Below are positions 11,301 to 45,239 of a stretch of DNA of 64,000 bases, piece after piece (positions within the stretch are counted from its first letter, which is position 1; every line of letters begins with the position of its first letter). Source of the stretch: Centruroides vittatus (lineage: Eukaryota); assembly GCF_030686945.1 (NCBI RefSeq), contig NW_027122681.1, positions 1,738,938 to 1,802,937 of the forward strand. The letters run 5' to 3'. The position numbers and the translations under genes are program-made. The notes under the pieces were generated by a model. It worked only from the letters and a program-made list of their open reading frames with translations, had not been told where the DNA came from and made no database searches.

Positions 11301-12169
11301 ATTTTTTTCCCCTCTTCTTCTTCTTCCTTTCTTCTATGTTGAGAGGAACAAATTGAATAACTCAATTTACCAGATAACATAAATAATGTAAATCAATAAT
11401 AATTCTCGAGATGGAAACACATTATTTCATCTCACTTTTTTAATATTTCGTAAGAGAATTCGACCGTAAAATATATATATTTTCGGTTTTATAACATCAA
11501 CAATTTATTTATTTATGTTTGCTACTGTCTATAATATATATATATACAGTATATAAAATGAATTACGGATAGAAAGGGAATACTAAATAAATAAAAATAA
11601 AGAAGATTCGGTATTTTCTGACGACAAAATAAATTTATTTTCACTTTCATTTTGGATTTGGAAATATTTCCTACGTGGTAACATTAATAGAAAAATAGTT
11701 TGACGCTTCTTTAATGGCCGACAGTAGCAATTTAAAAAAACCATTTAGGGATTATTGTGTAGCTCTTCTCTTTAGTTTATATATATATATATTTTCTAAT
11801 TTGGAAAAAAAGGAAAGTTAATTATTGAATCGATAGGCCCTCTTCTAAATTTAACGCTTCTATTTTTTACTATTAATTTGCTTAATTCGAAATTACTTTC
11901 CTGTGTTTTACACTGTGTTTTACACTGTGTTTTCCCATTTACTTTACTATATTTACATTGTTATAATAGGGAAAAAAATAATTAGAATGACCTGTTTTGT
12001 TGCTTAATTTTTTTTTTGTCTTGTGGGCCTTTTAAAAGGCGATCGACGGGGTCCTACATATAAGGGACAGGTCGCGTATGAGCGTTTCTGGGGGTTTTGA
12101 TCGCTCGGATTCGAAAAGGATCCCCAGAGCGGTGAAGTAATTACCCTACTGTACTTTTTTAAACAACTC

Positions 12170-12540
12170 TTTCCGCCCCGAGAGCACTAAGAGGGCCTTT
12201 TTTTTCCCAGGCCCACAATAGTGGTGAGGGACGGGACCAGACATATCTTACGTGGACCACTCCCGAAAAGTTCCTGGGGTTTTTTTCGACTCGTTCGGAT
12301 TCGATTCCCATCAGTGACCGAGTGGATAAAACCGCCGGACACTGGTGGTTGATCGTGGGTTCGCTCCTCGCCACACGAACTTTCCCGGGTTTTCTCCGTA
12401 TTGTAACACCTAAATAGGGCCAGTTTCCCATAGGAAGTTTTCCCGGGAGGCATCCCCCCTCGGCAGATCTCCGACTTGTCACTTTGCCGTATACAAATAC
12501 ACTAGACTCTCGCTAATCCGGCCATTCCTGGCACGGAGGA
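12170..12540 (+). mobile_element. tRNA-derived SINE. The head resembles a tRNA D-arm and T-arm, and the body contains aaatagggccagtttccc.
   Basis: Head 12296-12375 reads gaccgagtggataaaaccgccgg...gtgggttcgctcctcgcc. The body is shared with 34310-34520 (ttttctcc..gtaa..cctaaatagggccagtttccc..ggcatcccccc..ggcagatc). The head is homologous to the minus-strand copy at 25400-25600. A partial inverted copy follows at 12720-12840. Confidence 0.5.
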
Positions 12541-14920
12541 AATCCGGATTACTGAGCGTATAGGACTAAAGGCAATGACAACGACAAGGCGCCCTTCCGT
12601 ACTGATTCTTTTTGGAGCTGTATTTTGTTGATACAGTAATTGCAAGTGTAACATTAATAAAGAATTAAAAGTATACTACATATATTAAAAAAAAAAATAA
12701 TAATAATAATAACGAACATATTCCGATGGGTATGCCGGATTAGCAAAAGTCTAGTGTAATTCAATCCGAGTTCAATTCTGGGTCTCCCAGAGCAGTAGGC
12801 TCGACACGGACATCCGGCCCCTCTGTAATTATCCTACCAGAAAAGCATGGATTAAAATTAAGATAAACAAACGTACAGACGTTAAGTAAATTATTATAAA
12901 GTTTCTCTGGCCATTCTGACTTTCATTAATCATACGAACATCAACAAATAACCCGTCTGCGCCGCGACGTTAAACAAACGTTAACTAATACTCGATACGG
13001 GTGTATACTTCTACGCCATTATCTTTAAAACCCTTCTTACTTAATATACCACTATCAAACTAAGTGCAATGTGCTGTAGACTTAAAATTTATAGAGCTAA
13101 GAGGAGGACGGATAAAAAAAAAAGATCATCCAGCGATCTTAACTAATTAAACTATAAAAATAATTCTTAATCAGTTTTAAAGGGCTATTAACTACCGAAT
13201 TATCTAGAGAAATACACCGAAAAGTTTCGGTTTACTACTTCGTACCCCTTCTCTAATTTATTATTATTTTAATTGTTTGGTTTTAAGTAAATTTATGGAG
13301 TTTCGGTTTACAAATTATTCGGATGGGGATAAATCACTCCCTGTTTATTAATGCTCGTTACGGGTGGTCTTAAGTGTTACTCTTCTTCATCACCGCGTAT
13401 TGGAGCCGCGAAAGAAATGTAGGAAGGTAGAAAATTGAAGCTGTTTTTATGTTGCCATTGTAGCTCCAACAGTAAAAACTTGGCGATCAGTTCTACTTAA
13501 ATTATTAATCACAAAAATGGCGAGATTGTTTTAGAGAGAATTAGGGTATCTCTCTCTCTCTCTCTCTCTCCTCCCTTTCCCCCCTCTCCCACACTCTCTA
13601 TCTCTGGAATCGATAAACTTTCCCATTGGAAAAATGGCAAAGTTGTTAAATATTTATTACTAACGAGTTATACCTTATCTGGAAGATCTCATTGGTTACT
13701 AAAAAAAGAACTCTAATCATTTTCTAATCATCTAGAAGGCGTTAAGAGTAGAAAAATAATTTTCGCAATGGAGAATTACGCCACACTCTAAATATAAATC
13801 TAGTTTAATTCGGGGGGGAGGCACCACCACGCGAAAATTCTCCTCCTCCCCCCCTTCCCAAACTAGCTTGACTCTTATTGGCACTTTTCCCAATATCTTT
13901 ACCGAATGGCGACCCCAGACACTGATTGCAACTGTCAATGGATTCTGCGCTATGTCATTATTGGAAGGAAACGTCGTTTGGGAGGACAGCTTCCATCTGA
14001 AAGAAGAGGTCGTTTGCAAGAGGGAGAGGAGGAGGAGGAGAAGAAGAAGGAAAAGGGGAAAAAAAGTGGAAGCATTCTTTGATATATGATTGAATGGCAG
14101 AAAGGTAAATTCTTTTGCCTGCCTGCCACACATTTGTGCAACAGGAGAAACGTAAATGCTCATATAAAATTTCAATTCGAAAATTTCCACCCTATACCTG
14201 CTGTATCTGCCGCTTTCTTTCTTATCTGTATCAAATTCTAGACGTATTTTTGCATAAGAAACAAGGAGGAACCCCCCTTTTACCACTCATCCATATTTCT
14301 GATATTCTAGGATACATATTTTTCTGTAAGCCGTTTCTGTAAAATACTCTTAGATTTTTATTTAGTCAACGTAACAGATGGGATGAAAGGAAATCATAAA
14401 TTCTTATAAAATTCGAATTTCGCTTTTTAAAAATAAATAAATATCGAATAAATTTACCGTAACATAGTAGACATTTTTTTTTTTAAATTTTAAAAATACG
14501 TACAGTACAGTACAATTTGACGTCTTTCGGTCGCAGAAAAAAAAATCTATGCTAAACTCCTTTTAGTATTCTTCTTGGTTGTAAACATACATCATTGGGA
14601 TATTTCTAGAAGTTCTTATTCTTTTATAGTTTCTTTGACCTTTGCACTTAGTTTCAATTTGATTTCTGCTCAACCATCGGTGCAGAATTTTGTCTTTAGC
14701 ACGCTTGGTTAATTCCGTCCCGGAAGACACAACTGCAGATGGCAAGTTGATTCACAGGTTTTCATTTATATCGACGTTAAAAATCTTCCAGAAACACAAG
14801 AAATTTCTCGAAATTTTAGCTAAATAAGGCTCTAAAAATTTAATACAATATATCACGTTCTTTGAATATATCCTTAGAGACTTATTTAGCTGAAATTTTA
14901 ATTTCTCGTAGTGTTGTGTA

Positions 14921-24387: not shown

Positions 24388-24723
24388 ATGGACGATTCCT
24401 CCGTGAAGAAAATAAGAAATCCCGTTGGCGATCCTCCCTCATTAGGAGAAGACCCTTCTCGATTGGAAAGGGAGGAACCCCCAAATGAAAAACTGAATGG
24501 AAACATGGAAGACGTGTTGCCAGTTGCAGGTACGTCCGTCGTCAAGAAGAATCGAAAGATTAATGTAAGAAGAAGTATCGAACGCCGAACAGTTAGAAAA
24601 CGAAAAAGATCCGTGTCGGGAGGGAGATCGAGGAATAGGAAGATCAGGCGATCCAGGTCGAAGGTAAGGAGCAGTGGCAAGAAGAAGAGAGGACCCAAGA
24701 GGAGACGGAGGGTTTTATTTTAA
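24388..24723 (+). CDS. Putative small basic protein of 111 aa. The N-terminus is acidic and the C-terminus is Arg/Lys/Ser-rich, reminiscent of protamine/SNBP or SR-tail proteins.
   Basis: ORF MDDSSVKKIRNPVGDPPSLGEDPSRLEREEPPNEKLNG...RRSIERRTVRKRKRSVSGGRSRNRKIRRSRSKVRSSGKKKRGPKRRRRVLF. Locally more GC-rich than the surroundings. Promoter motifs lie upstream. An internal CAG|GTACGT at 24528 could alternatively be a donor. The antisense strand is also open because of purine bias. Confidence 0.35.
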   Translation: MDDSSVKKIRNPVGDPPSLGEDPSRLEREEPPNEKLNGNMEDVLPVAGTSVVKKNRKINVRRSIERRTVRKRKRSVSGGRSRNRKIRRSRSKVRSSGKKKRGPKRRRRVLF

Positions 24724-26247: not shown

Positions 26248-29034
26248 TTTTTACGTATTTACAGCGAGTGTACCTGGACGAAAACAAACCGGAAAGTGTG
26301 TATAATCTAGGATCGATCCTTTAAAACACGAAGGAAAAACTACAGACAGAAGCAGTCTTGTTAATTACGGGTTAATTTCTAATGTTTTATACGAAGAAGA
26401 ATCTGAAAATGCATTTTTGGAACCTTCAAAGCAGTTTTATCGAGTGGAGAATGGCAAATTTTTATCGGAAAACCACGCTTTTATCTTATGTGGAAAAGGT
26501 GGGATTGTGATTTCGGGAAGAATTAGAAAGGGCGAGAGAATGTCTAACCAAAACAAGCGAAAAATGCATTTAGATATTTTAGACGATGAATTAATTAGAA
26601 AAAATATCAAAGCATTACTAGAAATGAAATTCGGGTGTAGTTATACACTATCGTAATATAAAATGGTAATATAACCATAACTATTGTTCTTATATTTTAT
26701 TTTGAGTTATTTTCATGGGTACATTACTTTTGTACATGTACCCATGAAAATAACTCGAAATAAATTTTTAAATAATTTATTTATCCATGTTAATTTTCCA
26801 CGGGTCCGGCCACGACTTTTCAAGCTAATTACTATGCGTTAACATATTCATTCTCCTTTCTCCATTGAAAAATCCTAATATTTTCGACCAAACGTCAGAG
26901 ATCTGGCCCAGTGAGGAGTTGAGAGATTTCCAGTTATCTCCTAATGTAAAAAGTATAAACAACGTTCTTATAAAAAGTGAAGAGCAGCAAAGAATTAGAA
27001 AGCATGGGAGGTCGTTGTGGGAAGGAAAGACGAAAAGAGAGACTGGAAGAGGCAGAGGCACGAGAGCCTCCATGCTGAGAAAAAAAAAGGAAAAGATCGA
27101 AGTCAAAGAAAGAGAACAACAAAAGGGGAGCTCGAAGAATCAGAAAAAAAAGACGTCTTAAGAAATATCGACGTGCCCTAGCTCAGAATTGGTAGACGTC
27201 GATGGTTTTGTATCCAAATGGCCCTTTTCGGAGCCACGATTTAATGGTTAAGAGCAGCTTTATTGGTATGTTGAAAGCGATGCATTTACTCCAGTCTCAA
27301 AATAAATTTATTGTAAGCATCAAAATGTTTTTGCAAATCTATTTCGAATGGCCAGATTTTAAAAATTTGAACGATAAACATATACCTAAAGAAAAATATA
27401 TTCTAAGATTTATTTGTTCAAAAGATAATTAAAAAATAATAAGTTTTATCACGTGAAATGGCAAATTGTGCGTTCGAGTCAGAAGGTGTAGACAGGTGTA
27501 GATTCGTAAGTAAGTGTGACAGACACCGAGACAGACTCGATAATTACAAAAAAGAAAGGCATTTTTAGTAAGTATGTGGGAGTTGAGAGTGAAGTTGAAG
27601 ATGCAACCAAGATCTGGCATTGAGAAATCTCAGGGAGAAGCTCTTCCGTCCTTAAAATTTAAGGTTGTTATTATTTTTGCCCATTCTGATTGGTCGCCAT
27701 TCCTCGTTTTCGCTTTCTAAGTGTAACGATATCTCAATTTAGATCGCGAGATGAGTCAAAATCTACATTTAATTCGATCCCAGCTGAAGATATTTCCTCT
27801 TGAGACTTACATTGTCTAGATTTCCTTTGTCAAGTTATATTCTTTCTTTAAAAGGAAAAATAATCAAACACAAACAGGTAAGCCCATATATCTAATGTTT
27901 CTAACCGATTTTTGCTACTCTTAACTATTAAATATTGGCTCTAAAAAGAGCAGTTTGGTTAGGACCAGCATAATCTAACAATTCTAAAGCAAGATATGCT
28001 GAAGATGAGATTTTCTTCGGTTGTTCTAAATGTCACACAAATGGAGTCACATAACTAATCCTTATTTGCATAGATCTCTTAACAAAGATGTTGAAAATAA
28101 TAATGTCTTTATGGTAATTAGATTAATTGATGGAGGGCAGAAAGATGGGTAACATGTCTGTCCGAATTTAATGCAATATCTGAATAAGATTCAAAATATT
28201 GGAAAGTGTTTTCTATTATATTTATGGGAAAATTTTCACTGTTTCTGTGAACTATTTCAAATATTGTTCGAGAACGTCAAAATTTCGTTATTCTGCTTTA
28301 TTCTTACTGAAGAACTAACCTTCATTCTAATTGGATGAGGTCTGGAATGTCTTTAATCCAATGAAATTTGTTTTTTGCTCTTGATGATGATTCTAAGAAG
28401 TTGAAAGTATGGGGATTATGTCTAAGACTTGCTTTTTATTAATTCCCCAATAAAGTAGTTCTTAAAGACTTGAGTATGTAAGGTGTTGCTGATTCTTATA
28501 TGATATAGCATTTTGCAAATGATATTAACAGTATACTTTGTATTACTTATATTTATTTATTATTGACAGTTCAAAAATAGGTAAATCACAATAAATGTTG
28601 AAAACACATCTCTGGTAAACATAATGTGAAAAATTCAATACAAACTAATATATATCTTCAATAAAATGCATATGACATATGTTGATCCATAGACAGGACT
28701 CTCTTGTTTTCTTTTATAAATATTAGAAAACTAATTCAGTTTAAATTGTATAAAAATATACGTAAAATATTTTTGTTCTTGTGTATGTTCAGAAATTAAT
28801 TACCAAACAATGTGTTTTAATCTGACATTTACGATTTCTCGTTTAACGTATGGGACTAGTATCATTACTAAGTGTTACAAAATAGAAGGATTGCTTATTG
28901 TTTGTAATTTCAAATCACAGTATATTATATTTTTAATTATTTATATGCTAACATTAAATTCAATGACATAGTAACAACTTTAAATAGCTCTTGCATCTGA
29001 TTTTTGATTATTCAATATGTTAAGGATTGTGGCA

Positions 29035-29339
29035 CTAAAGCAAGGGTTCCCGAATAAAATCTAATATGAAATCTTCCCAATTTTTGCCTACACCGAGAGA
29101 CTGGCAAGCCATGGAATGCTTGTGTTGCATACAAATTATAAATCTGATCATTTTAATAATGGGTATCAAGTCTGCCCAGAGTATTGTTTCGGCTAGAAAA
29201 TCTGCAAGGTGTTGTAGTTTATCAATTTCGGTACTTCCAGAGATCTTTTTCTTAGAAAACTGGACAAAGTAGGATGCACAGAACAGGAGAAAGGCTAATG
29301 TGGATACCATGAATTCTATATCTTTAGAAGCTTTCGTTC
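29035..29339 (-). CDS. Terminal exon 3 of a three-exon gene. Protein unknown. Exon reads ...TKASKDIEFMVSTLAFLLFCASYFVQF...WEDFILDFIREPLL, then stop.
   Basis: Acceptor ...aattatttag|GAACGAAAG after a 64-nt intron (29340-29403). The reading frame continues in phase from exon 2 and ends at TAG at 29035-29037. Confidence 0.6.
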
Positions 29340-29403
29340 CTAAATAATTTAGTAAATTGTTAAAACCTAAGGATGAATTCTTAAAAAGAAAATATAATCT
29401 TAC

Positions 29404-29706
29404 CTAGAGAATTTAAACCGGCTTCTCTGAGATGTAACAAAAATGGCTTTTTAAGAACTCCTTTCTGGAGGAGGATTCCTTCTGTGCAAAATCCACCATT
29501 CTGAAAAATTTCAAACAATTCTATTAAATTTTGGCAAGTTTTTGTTATGTACATTCTTAATATCAAATTTGACTTTAAGGGCTTTTGAAAATTTAATTTG
29601 CTTACTTTATTAATAATGTTAGACAAATCTATGATTGTTTTTCGTACTTTATCGTCGCAGTCCAAGTCTAAAATTTCTGGTTCCGGTTCTGAAATAGCAT
29701 TTTCAC
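29404..29706 (-). CDS. Exon 2 of the same gene, 303 nt, beginning ENAISEPEPEILDLDCDDKVRKTIIDLSNIINK and ending ...GILLQKGVLKKPFLLHLREAGLNSLG.
   Basis: Acceptor ttatcgtttttcag|GTGAAAATGC at 29707. Donor CTCTAG|GTAAGATT at 29403. Open over 100 codons with phase-1 boundaries that are compatible with exons 1 and 3. Confidence 0.6.
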
Positions 29707-29980
29707 CTGAAAAACGATAATACTTTATTATCTAATCTAATTTTTGTGATTCATGCTGTATGACCTATTGGTCTGGTGACGGTCCGGCCAAACATTGTGT
29801 GAATGCCTTAATTAAAATGCGTAATACAAACTGTTGATATCTCTGACAAGAAAGTTTTTGACAGTCAGTTGAATAACACTAAAAAAAATAGTAAGTTACT
29901 TGACTTCTGTGCTTTTAGTTAGAGTTAAAAATGAAAAAACTTTCTGCCGTGTGGATATTAAGAGGGCTTATTTTCCATAC

Positions 29981-30056
29981 CTGTTGTAGGTTTATTCAAA
30001 TCTGGATGGGACAGACAGGATACAGTGCCCATGAAAAATTCTTTGGGGTTGCTCAT
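29981..30056 (-). CDS. Exon 1 of the same gene. ATG at 30056..30054, then MSNPKEFFMGTVSCLSHPDLNKPTT.
   Basis: An in-frame TGA sits immediately upstream of the ATG. Donor ACAACAG|GTATGG at 29980. The second Met is followed by GTVSC, which is a possible N-myristoylation/palmitoylation motif. Confidence 0.5.
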
Positions 30057-30512
30057 TCAGATTTGATTCTGGATTCCTCAGTATGATGCCTGTAATTACC
30101 TCAGCCATATGGCCGTCGCCAATAAAACAGTGACAATTATATAAAAGGGAAAATTGTCAGTCTGGTGATTGGCAGATGCAGACAACCAACTGCTGTATAG
30201 TGTGAAGCAACTTTTCACATGCAATATGTCACAGCAGTGGTGTGCCATGACATTTGATGATAGGGAAGCTGTGTTTCTGTAAGAAGACGACTTCCAGGGG
30301 CAATCAGTGATGGTCTAGAGTCCATTTATATTCGTTTGTTCAATAAGCCAGTAAGAACTGTAGACTTCTCTAAATGTATTTTTAATAGATTATCTGATAT
30401 ATTGAACTTGTTTATTTATTAAGTACATCAAATATTTTAATGGATTTTTTTAAAACTCCTGTCAACTATACAAAACATAACCCAACCGATAGGAGTTTCC
30501 TGGTAAGTTATA

Positions 30513-31067
30513 CGTGGTACGATCCAAAAGTTCGGGGACTGCAGTAATCTATGACAACAAAAGCATGTATTTGAAGTTACGGCGTATGAAATGGATTCTA
30601 CCAAACCACCTCTACGTGTTCAGGTTAATTTCACCCATGTCATGTGATTAAACCGCGAGCGCTGCTGTTTTTTTCCGGAGATAGTTACCTTTGTTCTGCG
30701 ACATAATAAAAGTAGAGTTTCAAGAACAACCTCCAACATTAAATTTTGTCAGCGTTTAGGTAAAACACCTACGGAGATTTTAAAATTGCTAAGAAAGGTG
30801 TACGGTGATTCTACGGTGAAAGGTCACGATGAAGTCGAAATGTTGGAGGTTGTTCTTGAAACTCCACTTTTATTACGTTGCAGAACAAAGGTAACTATCT
30901 CCGGAAAAAAAACAGCAGCGCTCGCGGTTTAATCACATGACATGGGTGAAATTAACCTGAACACGTAGAGGTGGTTTGGTAGAATCCATTTCATATGCTG
31001 TAACTTCAAATACATGCTTTTGTTGTCATAGATTACTGCAGTCCCCGAACTTTTGGATCGTACCACG
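30513..31067. mobile_element. Mariner-derived foldback MITE, copy 1. About 555 bp, fully palindromic, with a TA target-site duplication.
   Basis: ta|cgtggtacgatccaaaagttcgggg...ccccgaacttttggatcgtaccacg|ta. The arms 30513-30790 and 30800-31067 are reverse complements. The arm encodes FCQRLGKTPTEILKLLRKVYGDSTV, a mariner N-terminal HTH-like segment. Confidence 0.75.
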
Positions 31068-31856
31068 TAAATCAAGGGCAAGGGCGGCCAAATATCTAGC
31101 ACGCAGGTGACTAACAGCCCAGAATTGGTCCTGGATAGAATCATTGGAAGCGTTATACGATATTTTGGTGTGTGGCTTCCACTAGCTAAACCACGTCAGG
31201 TTGGTGCTCTGTAAAGTGCATGCGCAAATGCCTATAATCTGGTTGTTTTACTTCATTCGCCATGGAAGCTGTCCTGTATTCAACAATACAGCAAACACTT
31301 CCATTGGGAATATCCCTATATGAATTTATATTTGAAAATACAATAGCAATCTTATCGTTTTTTTCACATGTAGTATAGAAATTTGTAATAAAATATATAT
31401 TGCGGTTATAATAAAATGTAAATTTTAATTAATTCAAAGTATATTCAAATATGAAAATAATTGCGCAATATGTATTTATAGTTTAGAAAATACAAGGAAA
31501 GTGGCACTTCCAAGAACGGCACGCCACTGTGTCACAGTGAAGTCAGACCAGTTTGCATGACATGAATAGTGCTATTAATGCCATATGTTTTCACATTCAT
31601 CACACTTGTCACTTTAAAACCAAATGAAAATTTTTTAAACAGGCAAATTTATTGAAACCTGTTAATTCCCTTTGTACACGATTTGTTTTGATCTAAACAT
31701 TTTTCAAGATTGTGTAAAAAAAAATCTGTGTTTTATAATGACAAATAATCTGTATTAAATAAAAACATTAACATAACAAAACATACTTTAGAATTTTATC
31801 AGTTATAAAATAAAAAAAAATAAAAAAATAAGAGACTTATTTCAAACTTACAATAC

Positions 31857-34520: not shown

Positions 34521-35042
34521 AACAGAAACAATGTGAAATTGTCATTGGTTAACCAGGGCTTTAAACTACAATACTGCAAGTAAATAATACTTTAAATGTT
34601 GAACATTAAACATTTTAAATAAGAAATGCCAGCAATTTAAATGTTAACTGTTGTTAAAGACATTACTGAAATAAACAGTAGGCAAATAACACTTATTAAT
34701 TAATAACAATAATTGTAATTAATAAAGCTTCAAGTTATACTTTAAATAATGGATGTATAACAAGGATATGTTAAGACAATTTTTAATTGTCTTAACATAG
34801 CCTTTTAGAGTCAACAAAACATAAATTTCCACTAACTTTACCCTATTAGAAACTGTACAGAGTTTTGAGACACTTGATTCCTACTCACTCTGTGTGTAGG
34901 ACCACATACCCCTTAACGATCCCCTTAAACTGTACACATAACATGAAGAGGTTGTCCATTAATTAATGGTATAGGAGTGCTTCAAAGTAATACAATAAGT
35001 TGATTTCTCCAAGCTTAAAAAATTGTTTTTCTTTCTCATACC

Positions 35043-36408
35043 TTTTAATTCAATGAATATTGAATAGGTAGTTAATTCCTTCTGTGTAATTTCTGTTTCT
35101 CCGTCTTTGACGACAATTTCAGTATCACCAAATTTAACTACTTTTGATCCTGACTTCTTGGAAGAAAAATCTACAGGTCTATGCCTTTTCATTACAGATT
35201 GTTGAGGAAGAGACAATGGATATGTTTGCATAGAGAATTCTCGTAATTTAAGAAGATGTTGCTTTTGGAGCTGCTCCCCTTCATCTGATGAAACTGTTGA
35301 AAAATTATCATCATTAAATTTAAAATCTGAAAATGAAAAATAGATATTTGATATTTTTTTTACTTGAAGAAGGTAAGTTAGGTGGTACACCAGGTCGACT
35401 AACAAATTCTACTAATGTGGCTGATGGACTGCTTCCAAAACATGGTACTGAGGAGGGGGAGTGACCACTTCCAAAGCCTGAAACTGAGGAGGGAAATGCA
35501 CCACTTCTAAAACATGGTACTGAAGACTGTGTTGGACCACCTCCAAATTGTGGTACTGGAGGTGTTGGACCACTTCTAAAACATGGTGCTAGAGAGGGTG
35601 TTGGACCACTCCAAAAAGTTGTGGTACTGAAGAGGGTGTTGGACCACTTTCCAAAATCATGGTACTGAAGAGGGTGTTGGACCACCTACAACGATTGTGG
35701 ACTGAAGAGGGTGTTGGACCATTTCAAACAAATTGTGGTACTGAAGATGGTGTTGGACCACTTCTAAAACATGGTGCTAGAGAGGATGTTGGACCACCTC
35801 CGAATTGTGGGACTGAAGAGGGTGTTGGACCACTTCCAAAACCTCCAAATTGTGATACTGAAGAGGGCGTTGGACCACTTCCAAAACGTGGTACTGAAGA
35901 GGGCGTTGGACCACCTCCAAATTGTGGGACTGAAGAGGGTGTTGGACCATTTCCAAAACCTCCAAATTGTGGTACTGAAGATGGTGTTGGACCACTTCTA
36001 AAACATGGTGCTAGAGAGGATGTTGGACCATCTCCAAATTGTGGGACTGAAGAGGGTGTTGGACCACTTTCAGCATCTGGAAGAGGTTCATCTCCCTTCT
36101 CAGTTTCAAAGTCTGAAACCAAGTACAATGAACTGCTTCCAAACCGTGGTACTCTGGCAGAACAAGGTTGAATTTTCTGCATTAGAGCTGAGTATCCAGT
36201 TATTACTTCTTGGTTGGATACAAAATGATCCTCATGTGCTGATCTATGTGTAGTGGCCTCAAGAGATTTTCTTGAAACTGCACATAATTTTGAATTCACT
36301 GCATCGTAAGTTTCTACAAAATTTGCATCTAATTCAATGCTTTCATTTAGATAAAACCTATCTTCTCCAGTTTCTACATTTAGTTTTTTTAATTTAAACA
36401 ATACTTAA
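35043..36408 (-). CDS. Large coding exon, or exon plus mini-intron, for a low-complexity protein. It contains at least 12 tandem units of the roughly 12-aa unit GPTPSSVPQFGG, which is FG-repeat-like. Local frame breaks mean it may be a pseudogene or may contain assembly errors.
   Basis: Minus-strand frames that read ...LPDAESGPTPSSVPQFGDGPTSS...SGPTPSSVPQFGGFGSGPTPSS...: 35724-36401, 35320-35685, 34959-35405. The last two frames join cleanly if a 37-nt intron (CTTCAA|gtaaaaaaaatatcaaatatctatttttcattttcag|ATTTT, about 35325-35361) is spliced out. 3' donor TTAAAAG|GTATGAG at 35042. 5' acceptor tttctaaatag|TTTAAG at about 36409. A stop and indels in the repeats lie around 35620-35730. Confidence 0.45.
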
Positions 36409-41042: not shown

Positions 41043-42644
41043 CTGAAAGTAAAATAAATTAAAAATAGGAAATTAGAATTTATGTAATATTAGCAATAAA
41101 TTTCATTATACTGTATTGTAAACTAAAAGCTATTTACGTCCGATGACGTACATTGTAGTTTATATTCAAAAAATGGTAAAATCCCAAATAAAATATAACT
41201 CATCGAATTTGACCAAAAAGCTAAAAATCATAATTTAATTTTTAAAATTAACAAAGAAAAAACTTCATATGCATAAAAGTAGTTCAAGAAGTCATTTATT
41301 TGTGTTAGAATTAATGGAATAAGGAGCAATGCAACACTCGAGTTATCTGCTACGGGAGTGGTACCACACAGGATGAAATTCTATGGAAAACCAGCCCAAT
41401 TTAAGTGTTAGGCATGCGAAGAAAACCTGGAAAACAATACTGAAGGGTACAAACTAACAATCAACTACCAGTATTTGTGCTTTTGTGTAGTAAACTGTGG
41501 ATTTATTCAGGATAAAATGTTTTTCAAAATAGCAACACCTTATTGTCAGGTCCAACTGAAAGAACAGAATTTGAATAAAAATATCACCAGATTGTTCTAA
41601 AAAACTGTTTTCTGGCTTTTTGAACACACAGGCAATGTTGTTTTCATTCAAATTACATTCTTTCAGATTCTAGTTGGATCTAATAAAGAGATGTTGCTGC
41701 CATTGTGATAAATGTTTTATAGATTAAACTATCTTCTTACCAGATTACTGGAATGAATCACACACAATCAAGAACCTTTAAAATCCAGTAACATTTCATT
41801 AAAATTTGTGTTACTGAACTTTTAAGAACCTTTAATGTTTTATTCTGAATAAACCTGACTCCAAGGAATGGTTTATAGTATTTACACAGATTTGTTTGTT
41901 TATCTACAGAATCATTAATGTTAGAACATATTTTAAAACCTGGCCAGTGATTTAAATAGGGTTTGGCCAGGCCAGTGACTAGATGGCCAAGGAATGGCCA
42001 TCTAGTCATTGGCCTGCGGGCCCAACATATCCAGAATGGACCAACCTCAAAAATTTCCTGTTGTTTTTTTCACCCATCTGGATTTGTTTTTGGGTCATCT
42101 GTGGCAGTAGGCTGACACTTTAACCATTCAGCCGTCTGCCCATCATCAAAATACATTTATAATATACAACAAATTTTCTTGAAATACTTTTTCATAGCTA
42201 GCCATTATTACATCATCATCAAAATAAAATTGGTATGGACTGACTTAATTTGAGTGCAGTTGAATCTATTGCTATAGAAAATACATCTGGCAAGAATATT
42301 GATCTCTATAAAATATTTATATCAATAACATTTTTATTTTTATTGTTTGTACCATATTGACCTGCAAACTCGACTTCACAAAGACTGAGTAAACCAAGTC
42401 TCTGAAAATGACAAGTTTATAGTGACGACGCTAGTCTAAATATGGGGCTCCTACTCAAATTTTTGTTTTAAATTCCACGATTTTGATGACTTTTCCTGAG
42501 CAACTTTCTACAAATTCCGACCCTCACGTCCCCTACAGGATGGCACATTGACAAAATAAATCAGCATTTGACTTATTATGCACATATGCTATTGCTTCTC
42601 CAACTTTTTAGTTAGTTATTTTTTTTTTCTAATTAACAGTTATA

Positions 42645-43516
42645 CGTGGTACGATCCAAAAGTTCAGGGAATGCAGTAATCTATGACAACAAAAGCATGT
42701 ATTTGAGGTTACAGCATATAAAATGGATTCTACCAAACCTTATCTACGTGTTCAGGATAATTTCGCCCATGTCACGTGATTAAACCGCGAGCGCTGCCAT
42801 TTTTTTCCGGGGATAGTTACCTTTGTTTGGCGACGTAATAAAAGTGGAGTTTCAAGAACAACCCCCAACATTAAATTTTGTCAGCGTTTAGGTAAAACAC
42901 CTACGGAGACTTTAAAATTGCTAAGAAAAGTGTACGGTGATTCTACCATGGCGAAGTCGAAAATGTACGAATAGCATTGGCGTTTTAAAGAGGGCCGAGA
43001 ATCCATCGCAGACAATCAACGCTCTGGCCGACCTTCGATTTAACAGGATACACAGGTTGAGTTTATCCTGCAAACACATTGAGCATTGAGAGACAACTCA
43101 ACATTTTCCTCATTCTGTTAAATCGAAGGTCGGCCAGAGCGTTGATTGTCTGCGATGGATTCTCGGCCCTCTTTAAAACGCCAATGCTATTCGTACATTT
43201 TCGACTTCGCCATGGTAGAATCACCGTACACTTTTCTTAGCAATTTTAAAGTCTCCGTAGGTGTTTTACCTAAACGCTGACAAAATTTAATGTTGGGGGT
43301 TGTTCTTGAAACTCCACTTTTATTACGTCGCCAAACAAAGGTAACTATCCCCGGAAAAAAATGGCAGCGCTCGCGGTTTAATCACGTGACATGGGCGAAA
43401 TTATCCTGAACACGTAGATAAGGTTTGGTAGAATCCATTTTATATGCTGTAACCTCAAATACATGCTTTTGTTGTCATAGATTACTGCATTCCCCGAACT
43501 TTTGGATCGTACCACG
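42645..43516. mobile_element. Mariner-derived foldback element, copy 2. 872 bp, perfectly palindromic about position 43075, with a TA target-site duplication.
   Basis: ta|cgtggtacgatccaaaagttcagggaatgcag...ctgcattccccgaacttttggatcgtaccacg|ta. Each arm retains the mariner 5' end and translates to CQRLGKTPTETLKLLRKVYGDSTMAKSKMYE*HWRFKEGRESIADNQRSGRPSI. This is HTH_48-like (compare [25 protein letters not shown]), with an in-frame stop. Confidence 0.8.
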
Positions 43517-45239
43517 TATATATATATATATTTATTTATTTATTTATTTATAATTGTCAAATTATTCAAATTAAAAATTAAATGTTTTATTAAATTAAAG
43601 TAGTTTATCCTGTTATTAATTCACAACCATAAATCTACATGGCTTTGAAAAAAAGACACAAGCAATTATTTTATTATTCATTAACAAATTCTTTATAATC
43701 CATGTACAAAGTATATATTAAATTTATCCCTTAATACACTGGAAAAAAAATCAGAAATTGACATTCGCTTTGTGGTATTTTGCAGTGGCATCTTGGTAAT
43801 ATATCATATTCTTTGTTAAGACATGGAATTTATGCTATTTTCGACTGTCTCCAGAAAAGAATGACAACTTATTTAATCTTAACATTAAGTTGTAGATATA
43901 AAATTAGATTATACGTATTTCTTTTTTTTTTTTTTTTTGGACGACATGACAAGTTTTACAGAATGACAAGTTATTGAGAGTCGAGTTTCTGGGACTATAG
44001 TTTATTCTAGTTGTATATTTACAATTTAATGTTAAAATAATGCTGAAAGTAAAAAAACCGTCTAACAACATTACAGTGGTGACTTGTGCTTTTAATTTGA
44101 CTCATTCCAAGAAACCATTTAAAGTCCAAAGCAATTTTTTTCTATTAGAAATAACAAAGTGAGTTAATCCATTCTCTGACCCTAAATAATACTCATTTCG
44201 ATAAACTTAAAACGGCAAATATATGTAAGTTAAGGTAAAAATAACAATTGAATGCCCTAACAATAAAATATGTAAATACTGTCTAATAAAATGAAAATTG
44301 CATTTATTGGTTGCACACCATGAACTTTGACATCTTAAACATGGCTGCCAGATTTGCCACATATATTGCTTTCATGCTTTGCGATAAGTTACTTTTTCAT
44401 CTCAATTGTTGTTACAATCTACTTCTTAGATGTTGTGGTCAATAGGTACAAGGTGTATTGGGTTGAACAGAAAGTTTTTGTCAACTATTTTTAACAGCTG
44501 TCTTTACTTAACATAAATGTATGATTTAATTATAATAGTTGCAAAATTTAACACTATCGTAACACACTGTTCATACTGTTTTTTTTATTTGGATTTCTCC
44601 TGAAGATGAGTTATAATTTTGTCAAAAGTACTTGTGAATTTTACCATAATTAAATTTTAATTAATTTTAATAGAGAGTTTTTCTTTATTATAAGTTTAAT
44701 TAGTTTATTATTAAATATTAATTATTTATTATATAAATTTTTATTTATAGTTACAGAATTGCTAAATTAAATACTAAAGTTATCATCTTACAAGATCGTT
44801 TTCTAAATTCAGAACTTTTTGATTTCTCTCTGGTACGACCTATTCAAAAAATTAAATATACATTTAATAAAAAGCATTATCAAGTTTTACAGACAGACAT
44901 AATTAAAATAAGAACAATGAATGATGACGGAATTACAAATGCACATAATAATATAAACAAAATATAGGGAAAGATCAAAACACAGTGAACGACCGAATAA
45001 AAACTTGACATATTTTCATTAATTGCAGTTGAAATTGCTAAAAAAATTCTCATTACATGTGAATTATAATTATGGAAAACTGATCACTAACAGAAGCTAA
45101 TATAAAATTGCAAACAGACAAATAAAAATGGTTAGTGCAAACATCATTGAGTCTGTACAAACAAGAAGGAATTCAGGATTCTCATCCGTGTTAGCATATT
45201 TGAAATATGTTATGCATGTATAAATTTAAGAGGAAACAA

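Follow-up and report, generated by a model that had tools for sequence, protein, structure and literature searches.

A probable divergent PARP4 MINT domain encoded by an uncharacterized gene of the scorpion Centruroides vittatus

The annotated gene and its surroundings

The window, by which is meant the whole 64,000-nt stretch of Centruroides vittatus contig NW_027122681.1 that was analysed, carries on its minus strand a gene of five coding exons (Table 1) for XP_067141085.1, a 270-aa protein named "uncharacterized protein" in RefSeq. The exons in the window are 100% identical to this record, and their exact GT-AG reconstruction from the window DNA reproduced XP_067141085.1 from its N-terminus (MQTYPL) onward, with an uninterrupted frame of 270 codons and canonical GT-AG sites throughout; exon A is indispensable for this exact rebuild. 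The region flagged for study (29035-30056) contains the last three coding exons (C, D and E), and the other two (A and B) lie 2-5 kb upstream of it.

Table 1. Features of the locus, in the order of transcription of the gene
Feature	Positions	Strand	Remarks
Degenerate 36-nt tandem repeat	35425..36069	minus	Directly upstream of exon A; found with TRF; 17 copies, 71-86% identity
Coding exon A	35231-35042	minus	ATG 35231-35229; 63 codons + 1 nt; donor GTATGA at 35041; within a 148-codon ORF
Coding exon B	31971-31852	minus	EWVKCKGGLPLCDFVFTNIQNTAMKENNEELLELLKNIPYC; acceptor tttttttcatag; donor GTAAGT
First exon of the sequence-only reading	30056-29981	minus	MSNPKEFFMGTVSCLSHPDLNKPTT + G; within the B-C intron; unsupported
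Coding exon C	29706-29606	minus	ENAISEPEPEILDLDCDDKVRKTIIDLSNIINK; first third of exon 2 of the sequence-only reading; donor GTAAGC at 29605
Intron, 105 nt	29605-29501	minus	GTAAGC...TTTTTCAG; in-frame, stop-free
Coding exon D	29500-29404	minus	NGGFCTEGILLQKGVLKKPFLLHLREAGLNSLG; corresponds approximately to human PARP4 residues 1583-1616
Intron, 64 nt	29403-29340	minus	GTAAGA...TTTAG
Coding exon E (last)	29339-29035	minus	TKASKD...FIREPLL; stop TAG 29037-29035; C-terminal two thirds of the MINT-like domain

The flagged region had previously been interpreted from its letters alone as a clean three-exon gene with short 64-nt introns and a 227-aa product. A spliced protein-coding gene is indeed present on the minus strand, with exons matching XP_067141085.1; the three segments of this sequence-only reading (30056-29981, 29706-29404 and 29339-29035) join in frame as a 684-nt CDS of 227 aa plus stop, all of the quoted junctions (CAG/GTATGG, tttttcag/GTG, CTAG/GTAAGA and tttag/GAACG) were found, and RefSeq has the same acceptor (29706), 64-nt intron, frame and stop codon (29035). 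The intron length is right for the second intron of that model but not for the first, which measures 274 nt. The gene is not a clean three-exon one, as five coding exons are annotated, one of the predicted exons hides a 105-nt intron and the first is unsupported. The 227-aa product contains a false 35-aa insert (VSKLNFQKPLKSNLILRMYITKTCQNLIELFEIFQ) because its exon 2 conceals this intron, which reads through owing to a length that is a multiple of 3 and the lack of a stop codon; about 12% of 105-nt intronic windows at this locus are stop-free in a given frame. The G+C content of the 105-nt intron is 0.23, that of the 64-nt intron 0.19 and that of the exons 0.28-0.39, and the 35 residues of the insert are missing from XP_067141085.1.

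On the strand of the gene, the 36-nt repeat encodes FG-like units of the form (G)PTPSSVPQFGG, and a 225-codon repeat ORF runs from 36401 to 35724. The frame of the repeat unit shifts from 2 to 1 to 0, one stop interrupts it, and no third-codon-position bias was detected in 13 units, so there is no sign of protein-level constraint. The repeat could be what is left of a longer 5' coding region, or could still belong to one. Between the repeat and exon A, 58 codons of open frame precede the ATG, an acceptor-like sequence (ttttcattttcag) is present at approximately 35330, and an A8 homopolymer is located where the frame of the repeat and that of exon A would meet. The only upstream exons on the minus strand encode a nuclear receptor DNA-binding domain of the ROR/HR3 type, for which no ligand-binding-domain exons were retrieved by a signature regular expression, by Pfam or by tblastn with an approximate RORgamma ligand-binding domain as query. 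Neither Rfam nor a tRNA scan found anything in the window.

Similarity to the MVP-interaction domain of PARP4

The protein family, which the sequence-only reading had left unassigned, is probably that of the MVP-interaction domain (MINT/MVPID) of PARP4, to which an exhaustive HMMER search led. Among 1.84 billion representatives, phmmer found one genuine non-self match of XP_067141085.1 (E 1.2e-5): P0003, a 2198-aa BRCT-PARP-VIT-VWA protein from the transcript assembly of run SRR3401116, whose domains (BRCT, PARP_reg, PARP, VIT and VWA) are those of the PARP4 architecture. The alignment pairs residues 71-265 of XP_067141085.1 with residues 1985-2183 of the 2198 of P0003, starting inside exon B and stopping five residues before the scorpion C-terminus; pairwise BLASTP gave E 2e-12, and the identity is 27% over approximately 195 residues up to the C-terminus. 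The tail of P0003 in turn matches the human MINT domain (residues 1563-1724) with E 3e-7, and the scorpion domain matches human MINT directly with E 4e-4 in pairwise BLASTP. When the scorpion domain was compared with a two-sequence profile of P0003 and human MINT by hhalign, the probability was 96.3% (E 2e-9, 135 columns). A profile of the scorpion domain and P0003 searched against PDB matched human PARP4 residues 1580-1637, which is the right place, with a weak E of 0.82. The second match of the exhaustive search, P0002, was rejected as spurious, being a tandem-repeat protein from Hydra whose score comes from 11 weak repeats.

Similarity to P0003 is significant for exon D (z 6.1) and exon E (z 12.4) each taken alone, marginal for exon B (z 2.0, p 0.05) and not significant for exon A with its upstream open frame (p 0.26); tblastn with P0003 over the window found exon E alone. 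The junction across the 64-nt intron is backed by homology, as the residues on its two sides (SLG/TK) are contiguous in P0003 (SLGTK) and in human PARP4 (S1614-LGV-K1618). Nothing is inserted in P0003 or human PARP4 where the 105-nt intron lies, and no similarity to P0003 was found for the 35 translated residues. Exon D aligns to human QTEDGFW...GIQSLG, and the central motif singled out in the sequence-only reading (FCTEGILLQKGVLKKPFLLHLREAGL) falls in the segment aligned to human residues 1585-1612. The exhaustive phmmer search returned no vertebrate PARP4 at E <=1e-3, and nothing was matched among PDB sequences by the 227-aa product or the P0003 tail (phmmer), or in PDB by a profile of the last 65-80 residues. 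No Pfam family was assigned to the 227-aa product, its intron-removed version or XP_067141085.1; Pfam has no model for the MINT domain.

The human MINT domain (residues 1562/1570-1724; PDB 9BW6, 9BW7 and 11JF) occupies the extreme C-terminus of PARP4, as does the scorpion domain, which is of similar length. Human MINT is all-helical (PMC10450202), secondary structure prediction for the scorpion domain likewise yielded all helices, and the two align collinearly. They share a G[IL]xSLGxK motif, which includes S1614 and K1618, and a C1687..L..G..W1696 block, but are only about 25-28% identical, and the scorpion protein has Ser in place of R1689 and Lys in place of Q1682. Human PARP4 also has BRCT, PARP, VIT and VWA parts, all of which the annotated scorpion protein lacks. 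P0003 resembles the scorpion domain in the SLGTK motif and in Ser at the R1689 position, but it is a full-length PARP4-type enzyme, whereas the scorpion model is 270 aa long and its exon A has no P0003 counterpart. The only other MVPID-like fold reported in human proteins is the C-terminal helical domain of VWA5A (Suskiewicz et al. 2023, PMC10450202), which follows a VIT-VWA region and, like the scorpion domain, is devoid of an equivalent of Arg1689; no VWA5A-type protein was retrieved in database searches with the scorpion sequence. AlphaFold2 models of XP_067141085.1 alone (pLDDT 40) and from a two-sequence alignment (pLDDT 44) were unusable for fold comparison, and Foldseek matches of the latter were discarded as noise.

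Taken with the exact rebuild of the RefSeq model, these comparisons make it quite probable that the flagged stretch corresponds to the 3' part of the annotated gene and that residues ~105-270 of its product are a divergent MINT/MVPID homologue. A RefSeq-"uncharacterized" protein outside the coverage of Pfam would thereby gain a name and a testable function, and a PARP4 vault-docking domain with two validated MVP contact residues would be recognisable in an arachnid.

[quoted passage not shown] In human PARP4, S1614 and K1618 are MVP contacts, the latter forming a salt bridge with MVP D214, and with the S1614/K1618 double mutant the isolated domains no longer form a complex (PMC12280208). Scorpion GLNSLGTK, P0003 GIRSLGTK and human GIQSLGVK align column for column with both contact residues conserved, and the conserved motif straddles the 64-nt intron. 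A C-x2-L-x2-G-x2-W-[DE] block is kept in exon E, matching human C1687-W1696. Human R1689, an MVP contact at the centre of a conserved surface patch, is replaced by Ser in the scorpion (CQSL) and in P0003 (CSSL) when the alignment is anchored on Cys1687, and the patch that it forms with Q1682 on helices 7-8 is not preserved. The PARP4-binding residues of MVP were found by Lodwick et al. to be conserved in vertebrates only (PMC12280208), and MVP orthologues have been reported in Chelicerata (PMC11219742). Judged from sequence, the chance that the scorpion domain docks the protein carrying it to scorpion vaults is about even, given the replacement of R1689 and Q1682.

Alternative readings of the locus

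That the resemblance to PARP4 is spurious or due to generic helical composition, and the gene a lineage-restricted orphan, appears improbable. A single match, P0003, links the two, the other match is a Hydra artefact, the PDB profile E-values are not significant and structural confirmation is absent, but the alignment is collinear and anchored at the C-terminal end of both proteins, each of exons D and E is significant individually, the weak PDB match covers 57 of the 1724 residues of human PARP4 and falls in the correct place, the residues that match have been validated as contacts by experiment, and the hhalign probability is high. With homology to MINT as the preferred reading, the extent of the gene may be considered. 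It is possible, though on the whole doubtful, that the 270-aa model is a truncated fragment, namely the 3' end of a larger PARP4-like gene that annotation split at a repeat-rich, error-prone part of the assembly. P0003 and human PARP4 are enzymes of 1700-2200 aa with MINT at their very C-terminal end; no second MINT-bearing protein was found in a search that covered the RefSeq models of C. vittatus; FG-rich repeats precede MINT in P0003 as the FG-like repeat precedes the scorpion gene on the same strand; the frame is open above the annotated ATG and would meet that of the repeat at a homopolymer; and the assembly was made from PacBio CLR reads (PMC11304958). Against such a split, neither tblastn with P0003 nor Pfam on all ORF segments detected a PARP, VIT, VWA or BRCT exon on the minus strand between 36.5 and 64 kb, so that a full-length PARP4/vPARP enzyme of PARP clade 5 was not found within the window; the exons upstream on the same strand are those of the nuclear receptor; the repeat array would need at least three frame changes, besides having a stop inside and no third-codon-position bias; and exon A is not significantly similar to P0003. 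There is a slim chance that the exons are the non-functional relic of a disrupted PARP4 gene without a working protein, in keeping with the degenerate and frame-broken repeat and with the failure to find an orthologue from another scorpion in the protein collection or an assembled transcript-derived protein matching XP_067141085.1. However, the five exons retain an open frame with canonical splice sites, and the retention of the SLGxK and C..L..G..W[DE] blocks at 27% overall identity suggests constraint. A free-standing 270-aa MINT protein, as annotated, is slightly favoured.

The remaining alternative concerns the 5' end of the product. The stop noted in the sequence-only reading, an in-frame TGA at 30059-30057, directly precedes the first ATG of its exon 30056-29981, and the second ATG yields MGTVSCLS, which fits the N-myristoylation pattern G-{EDRKHPFYW}-x(2)-[STAGCN]-{P}. 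An MG-start first exon with a lipid anchor has no support: the segment lies in a RefSeq intron, is without homology (similarity to P0003 was not found either), has no database record and occurs at chance level. Its MG methionine is internal, 8 codons downstream of the first ATG of the exon, and GTVSCL, which fits the pattern, comes after the second ATG of an exon outside the annotated gene. It is very unlikely that an internal promoter drives this first exon, with the 105-nt intron kept or removed, to give a short protein, which upon initiation at the second ATG would undergo putative Met-Gly N-myristoylation and palmitoylation on the nearby Cys, as read from the pattern alone. The exon is stop-free, has a good CAG/GTATGG donor in the right phase, is the only candidate of its type in the real intron, has a G+C content of 0.42 within a G+C-richer patch of 300 nt that is unique within the window, and is preceded by TATATAA approximately 85 nt upstream; its product would retain the whole minimal MINT domain. 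Yet the RefSeq model omits it, and none of the four possible products that bear it was found among 15 billion proteins, which included the RefSeq models of C. vittatus. When the 2145-nt interval that contains it was randomised with a first-order Markov model, 72% of the random intervals, alike in size and composition, held one or more phase-1 segments that began with ATG, had no stop and ended at a GT[AG][AT]G donor, and 28% held one of at least 76 nt. T is present at position -3 of both ATGs, so that neither is favoured, and TATATAA is calculated to arise by chance every 1.7 kb or so on each strand, given the local A+T content. As far as the evidence shows, the MG-start exon and the 35-aa insert are unsupported and not part of the gene. 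They illustrate two pitfalls of reading exons from sequence: an in-frame, stop-free intron may be taken as coding, and a chance segment from ATG to GT may mimic a first exon.

A possible free-standing MINT protein

PARP4 occupancy of vaults has been suggested to be a vertebrate innovation (PMC12280208). If true, the free-standing reading of the scorpion gene would mean that MINT-MVP docking is older than vertebrates and separable from ADP-ribosylation. Tentatively, and with considerable doubt, fission of PARP4 might have produced such a natural free-standing MINT protein, without the PARP, VIT and VWA parts, to serve in the vault lumen as an adaptor or cargo. At its most speculative, this reading would have the free-standing MINT protein tethered to membranes by way of a myristoylated, alternative first exon.

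We know of no natural free-standing MINT protein. A parallel is provided by the engineered INT/mINT tags used for loading cargo into recombinant vaults: if the 270-aa model is complete, the scorpion product would be like an INT tag that is slightly extended at its N-terminus and has no enzyme attached. The tags are artificial constructs of human sequence, whereas the scorpion product is natural, and a natural MINT-only protein, if the short model is correct, would be of interest for the engineering of vault cargo loading.

Exon structure of the gene

The stretch flagged by the sequence-only reading as a three-exon minus-strand gene is a real gene, annotated before but without a name. The proposed segments (30056-29981, 29706-29404 and 29339-29035, minus strand) form, when joined, an open frame of 684 nt that encodes 227 aa, with the quoted splice junctions present as described, a TGA directly upstream of the first ATG, and a second ATG that yields MGTVSCLS. 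The protein search suggested for this product gave one match, XP_067141085.1, a 270-aa 'uncharacterized protein [Centruroides vittatus]' from a 3.5-Mb contig; the common parts are 100% identical, with a 35-residue gap as the sole exception. The whole of XP_067141085.1 was placed on the window sequence, and its exact reconstruction on the minus strand has five coding exons (A to E) rather than three, all introns being GT-AG. The acceptor at 29706, the 64-nt intron (29403-29340), the frame and the stop of the earlier structure are correct, but an intron had been translated and two real upstream exons had been swapped for an intronic segment. Only one of the 'short 64-nt introns' has that length; the proposed intron 1 has 274 nt. 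The window is AT-rich (G+C ~31%), and the published G+C content of the C. vittatus genome is 30.85% (PMC11304958).

Coordinates of the reconstructed exons and neighbouring features (window positions)
Feature	Position	Strand	Remarks
Exon A	35231-35042	minus	XP_067141085.1 reconstruction
Exon B	31971-31852	minus	XP_067141085.1 reconstruction
Exon C	29706-29606	minus	XP_067141085.1 reconstruction
Exon D	29500-29404	minus	XP_067141085.1 reconstruction
Exon E	29339-29035	minus	XP_067141085.1 reconstruction
Nuclear-receptor zf-C4 DNA-binding domain, two exons	~63747-63667 and 60531-60391	minus	Pfam E 1.1e-30
Palindromic (foldback) element, ~560 bp	30506-31072		In intron B-C; arms ~89% complementary
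36-nt tandem repeat, ~17 copies	35425-36069		71-86% identity; FG-like GPTPSSVPQFGG units on minus strand

The translated intron (29605-29501, minus strand; GTAAGC...TTTTTCAG), inside the proposed second exon, can be read through because its length of 105 nt is a multiple of three and it contains no stop. Since ~12% of 105-nt windows from the two long introns of the gene are stop-free in a given frame, this read-through is an unremarkable coincidence. The G+C content is 0.23 in the 105-nt intron, 0.19 in the 64-nt intron and 0.28 to 0.39 in the exons. The 35 residues are absent from XP_067141085.1; P0003 (the only genuine non-self relative found) and human PARP4 both lack an insert where they would fall, and no similarity of the intron translation to P0003 was found.

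The proposed first exon (30056-29981) falls within the intron that separates exons B and C (2145 nt); no other segment of that intron combines an ATG start, a compatible phase and a good donor. Markov randomisations of this intron contained at least one equivalent segment in 72% of cases and one of at least 76 nt in 28%. Its peptide has no similarity to P0003, and none of four possible products (either ATG as start, with the 105-nt intron kept or removed) is present in a 15-billion-sequence collection that includes the RefSeq models of the species. The segment, being no better than chance and devoid of homology or a database product, is unsupported, as is the myristoylation idea. The myristoylation pattern occurs only from its second ATG, and at position -3 both ATGs have an unfavourable base. 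As an alternative first exon the segment is unsupported, not disproved. A G+C-richer patch (0.42-0.45; 30000-30300, minus strand) with no other copy in the window lies around and upstream of it, and TATATAA occurs ~85 nt upstream of its first ATG; patch and TATATAA are insufficient for a promoter call.

Similarity to the C-terminus of PARP4

The best explanation of the product is a divergent MINT domain of the PARP4 type. The C-terminal 150-160 residues of human PARP4 (vault PARP) form this MVP-interaction domain (MINT or MVPID), which is all-helical and docks PARP4 to the major vault protein (MVP) at repeats 3-5 (PMC12280208; PMC10450202). The domain has no Pfam model, and Pfam and PDB sequence searches with the product gave no match. 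When 1.84 billion representatives were searched exhaustively with HMMER, two non-self matches came up: P0002, a Hydra tandem-repeat protein scoring through 11 weak repeats and rejected as spurious, and P0003, a 2198-aa ORF on a 6.8-kb contig from the transcript assembly of run SRR3401116. P0003 contains BRCT, PARP_reg, PARP catalytic, VIT and VWA domains, the architecture that defines PARP4 (PMC2964712). Residues 71-265 of XP_067141085.1 align to residues 1985-2183 of P0003, its extreme C-terminus (E 1.2e-5 database-wide, 2e-12 pairwise); exons D (z 6.1) and E (z 12.4) each reach significance alone, exon B is borderline, and significance is lacking for exons A and C. A profile of the scorpion protein and P0003 matched human PARP4 in the PDB (11JF, 9BW6, 9BW7) weakly (E 0.82), at residues 1580-1637, inside MINT. 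Against human MINT (residues 1563-1724 in the PDB version), E values were 3e-7 for P0003 and 4e-4 for the scorpion domain, and hhalign of the scorpion domain with a P0003 and human profile gave a probability of 96.3% (E 2e-9, 135 columns). Two AlphaFold2 runs produced all-helical models of low confidence (pLDDT 40 and 44); a Foldseek result from the latter model was discarded as noise.

In a three-way alignment, GIQ-S1614-LGV-K1618 of human PARP4 corresponds to GLN-SLGTK of the scorpion and GIR-SLGTK of P0003. MVP contacts have been validated for S1614 and K1618, the latter being salt-bridged to MVP D214, and the double mutation abolishes the complex of the isolated domains (PMC12280208). The 64-nt intron splits this conserved motif (SLG|TK), which independently confirms the junction. 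A second block, [YH]-x3-C-x2-L-x2-G-x2-W-[DE] (human Y1683-D1697), is kept in all three proteins, whereas R1689, the centre of a conserved patch and also an MVP contact, is replaced by Ser in the scorpion and P0003 when the alignment is anchored on the Cys of the block, and Q1682 by Lys in the scorpion. With S1614 and K1618 kept and R1689 and Q1682 changed, the binding surface is partly kept and partly not. According to Lodwick et al., the PARP4-binding residues of MVP are conserved in vertebrates only (PMC12280208); Chelicerata have MVP (PMC11219742). That the scorpion domain actually docks to vaults would seem an even chance.

Extent of the gene and neighbouring features

We lean slightly towards regarding XP_067141085.1 as free-standing or truncated as annotated. 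That its exons are the 3' part of a larger gene is less likely, even though MINT sits at the C-terminal end of both P0003 and human PARP4, no other MINT-bearing protein of the species appeared in the searches run, and the degenerate 36-nt repeat with FG-like units immediately precedes exon A on the gene's strand, P0003 likewise having FG-rich repeats at the equivalent position. Above the annotated ATG, 58 codons are open in frame, with an A8 run and a sequence resembling an acceptor at the meeting point of the frames, and the PacBio CLR reads behind the assembly are error-prone (PMC11304958). However, no PARP, VIT, VWA or BRCT exon was detected by tblastn with P0003 or by Pfam searches that covered every minus-strand ORF segment between 36.5 and 64 kb; the repeat shifts frame at least two more times before exon A, contains a stop and lacks third-codon-position bias; and the sole upstream coding exons on the strand are those for the DNA-binding domain of a ROR/HR3-type nuclear receptor. 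A relic, or some other explanation, is less probable still. If the free-standing architecture were confirmed, the modest interest of the MINT gene would rise. Open frames run through the repeat array on either strand (minus, 35724-36401; plus, 35659-36171), with frame shifts along its length; the array may be coding sequence, a relic or a minisatellite.

With ROR-gamma as its best match in the PDB (E 4.4e-30), the receptor at ~63.7 and 60.5 kb is of HR3/ROR type; its P-box, CESCKG, is unusual. Searches of the whole window revealed no exon for a ligand-binding domain, so the receptor gene may run past the MINT gene, and the latter might then be nested within it. The foldback element looks like a mariner-derived MITE-like insertion: a related copy 12 kb away (42638-43521; 92-93% similar) weakly matches the HTH of the Mos1/mariner transposase (HTH_48, E 0.046; 43285-43199, minus strand). 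A local G+C peak of 0.41 (window ~0.31) at 12001-14300 contains minus-strand ORFs of 107 and 184 aa, the latter without a Pfam match. Two plus-strand ORFs, at 24388-24723 (111 aa) and 26865-27161 (98 aa), are overlapped by ORFs of the opposite strand. Their peptides are very rich in Arg, Lys and Ser and have no Pfam match; the ORFs could be either exons of a gene on the plus strand or low-complexity sequence.
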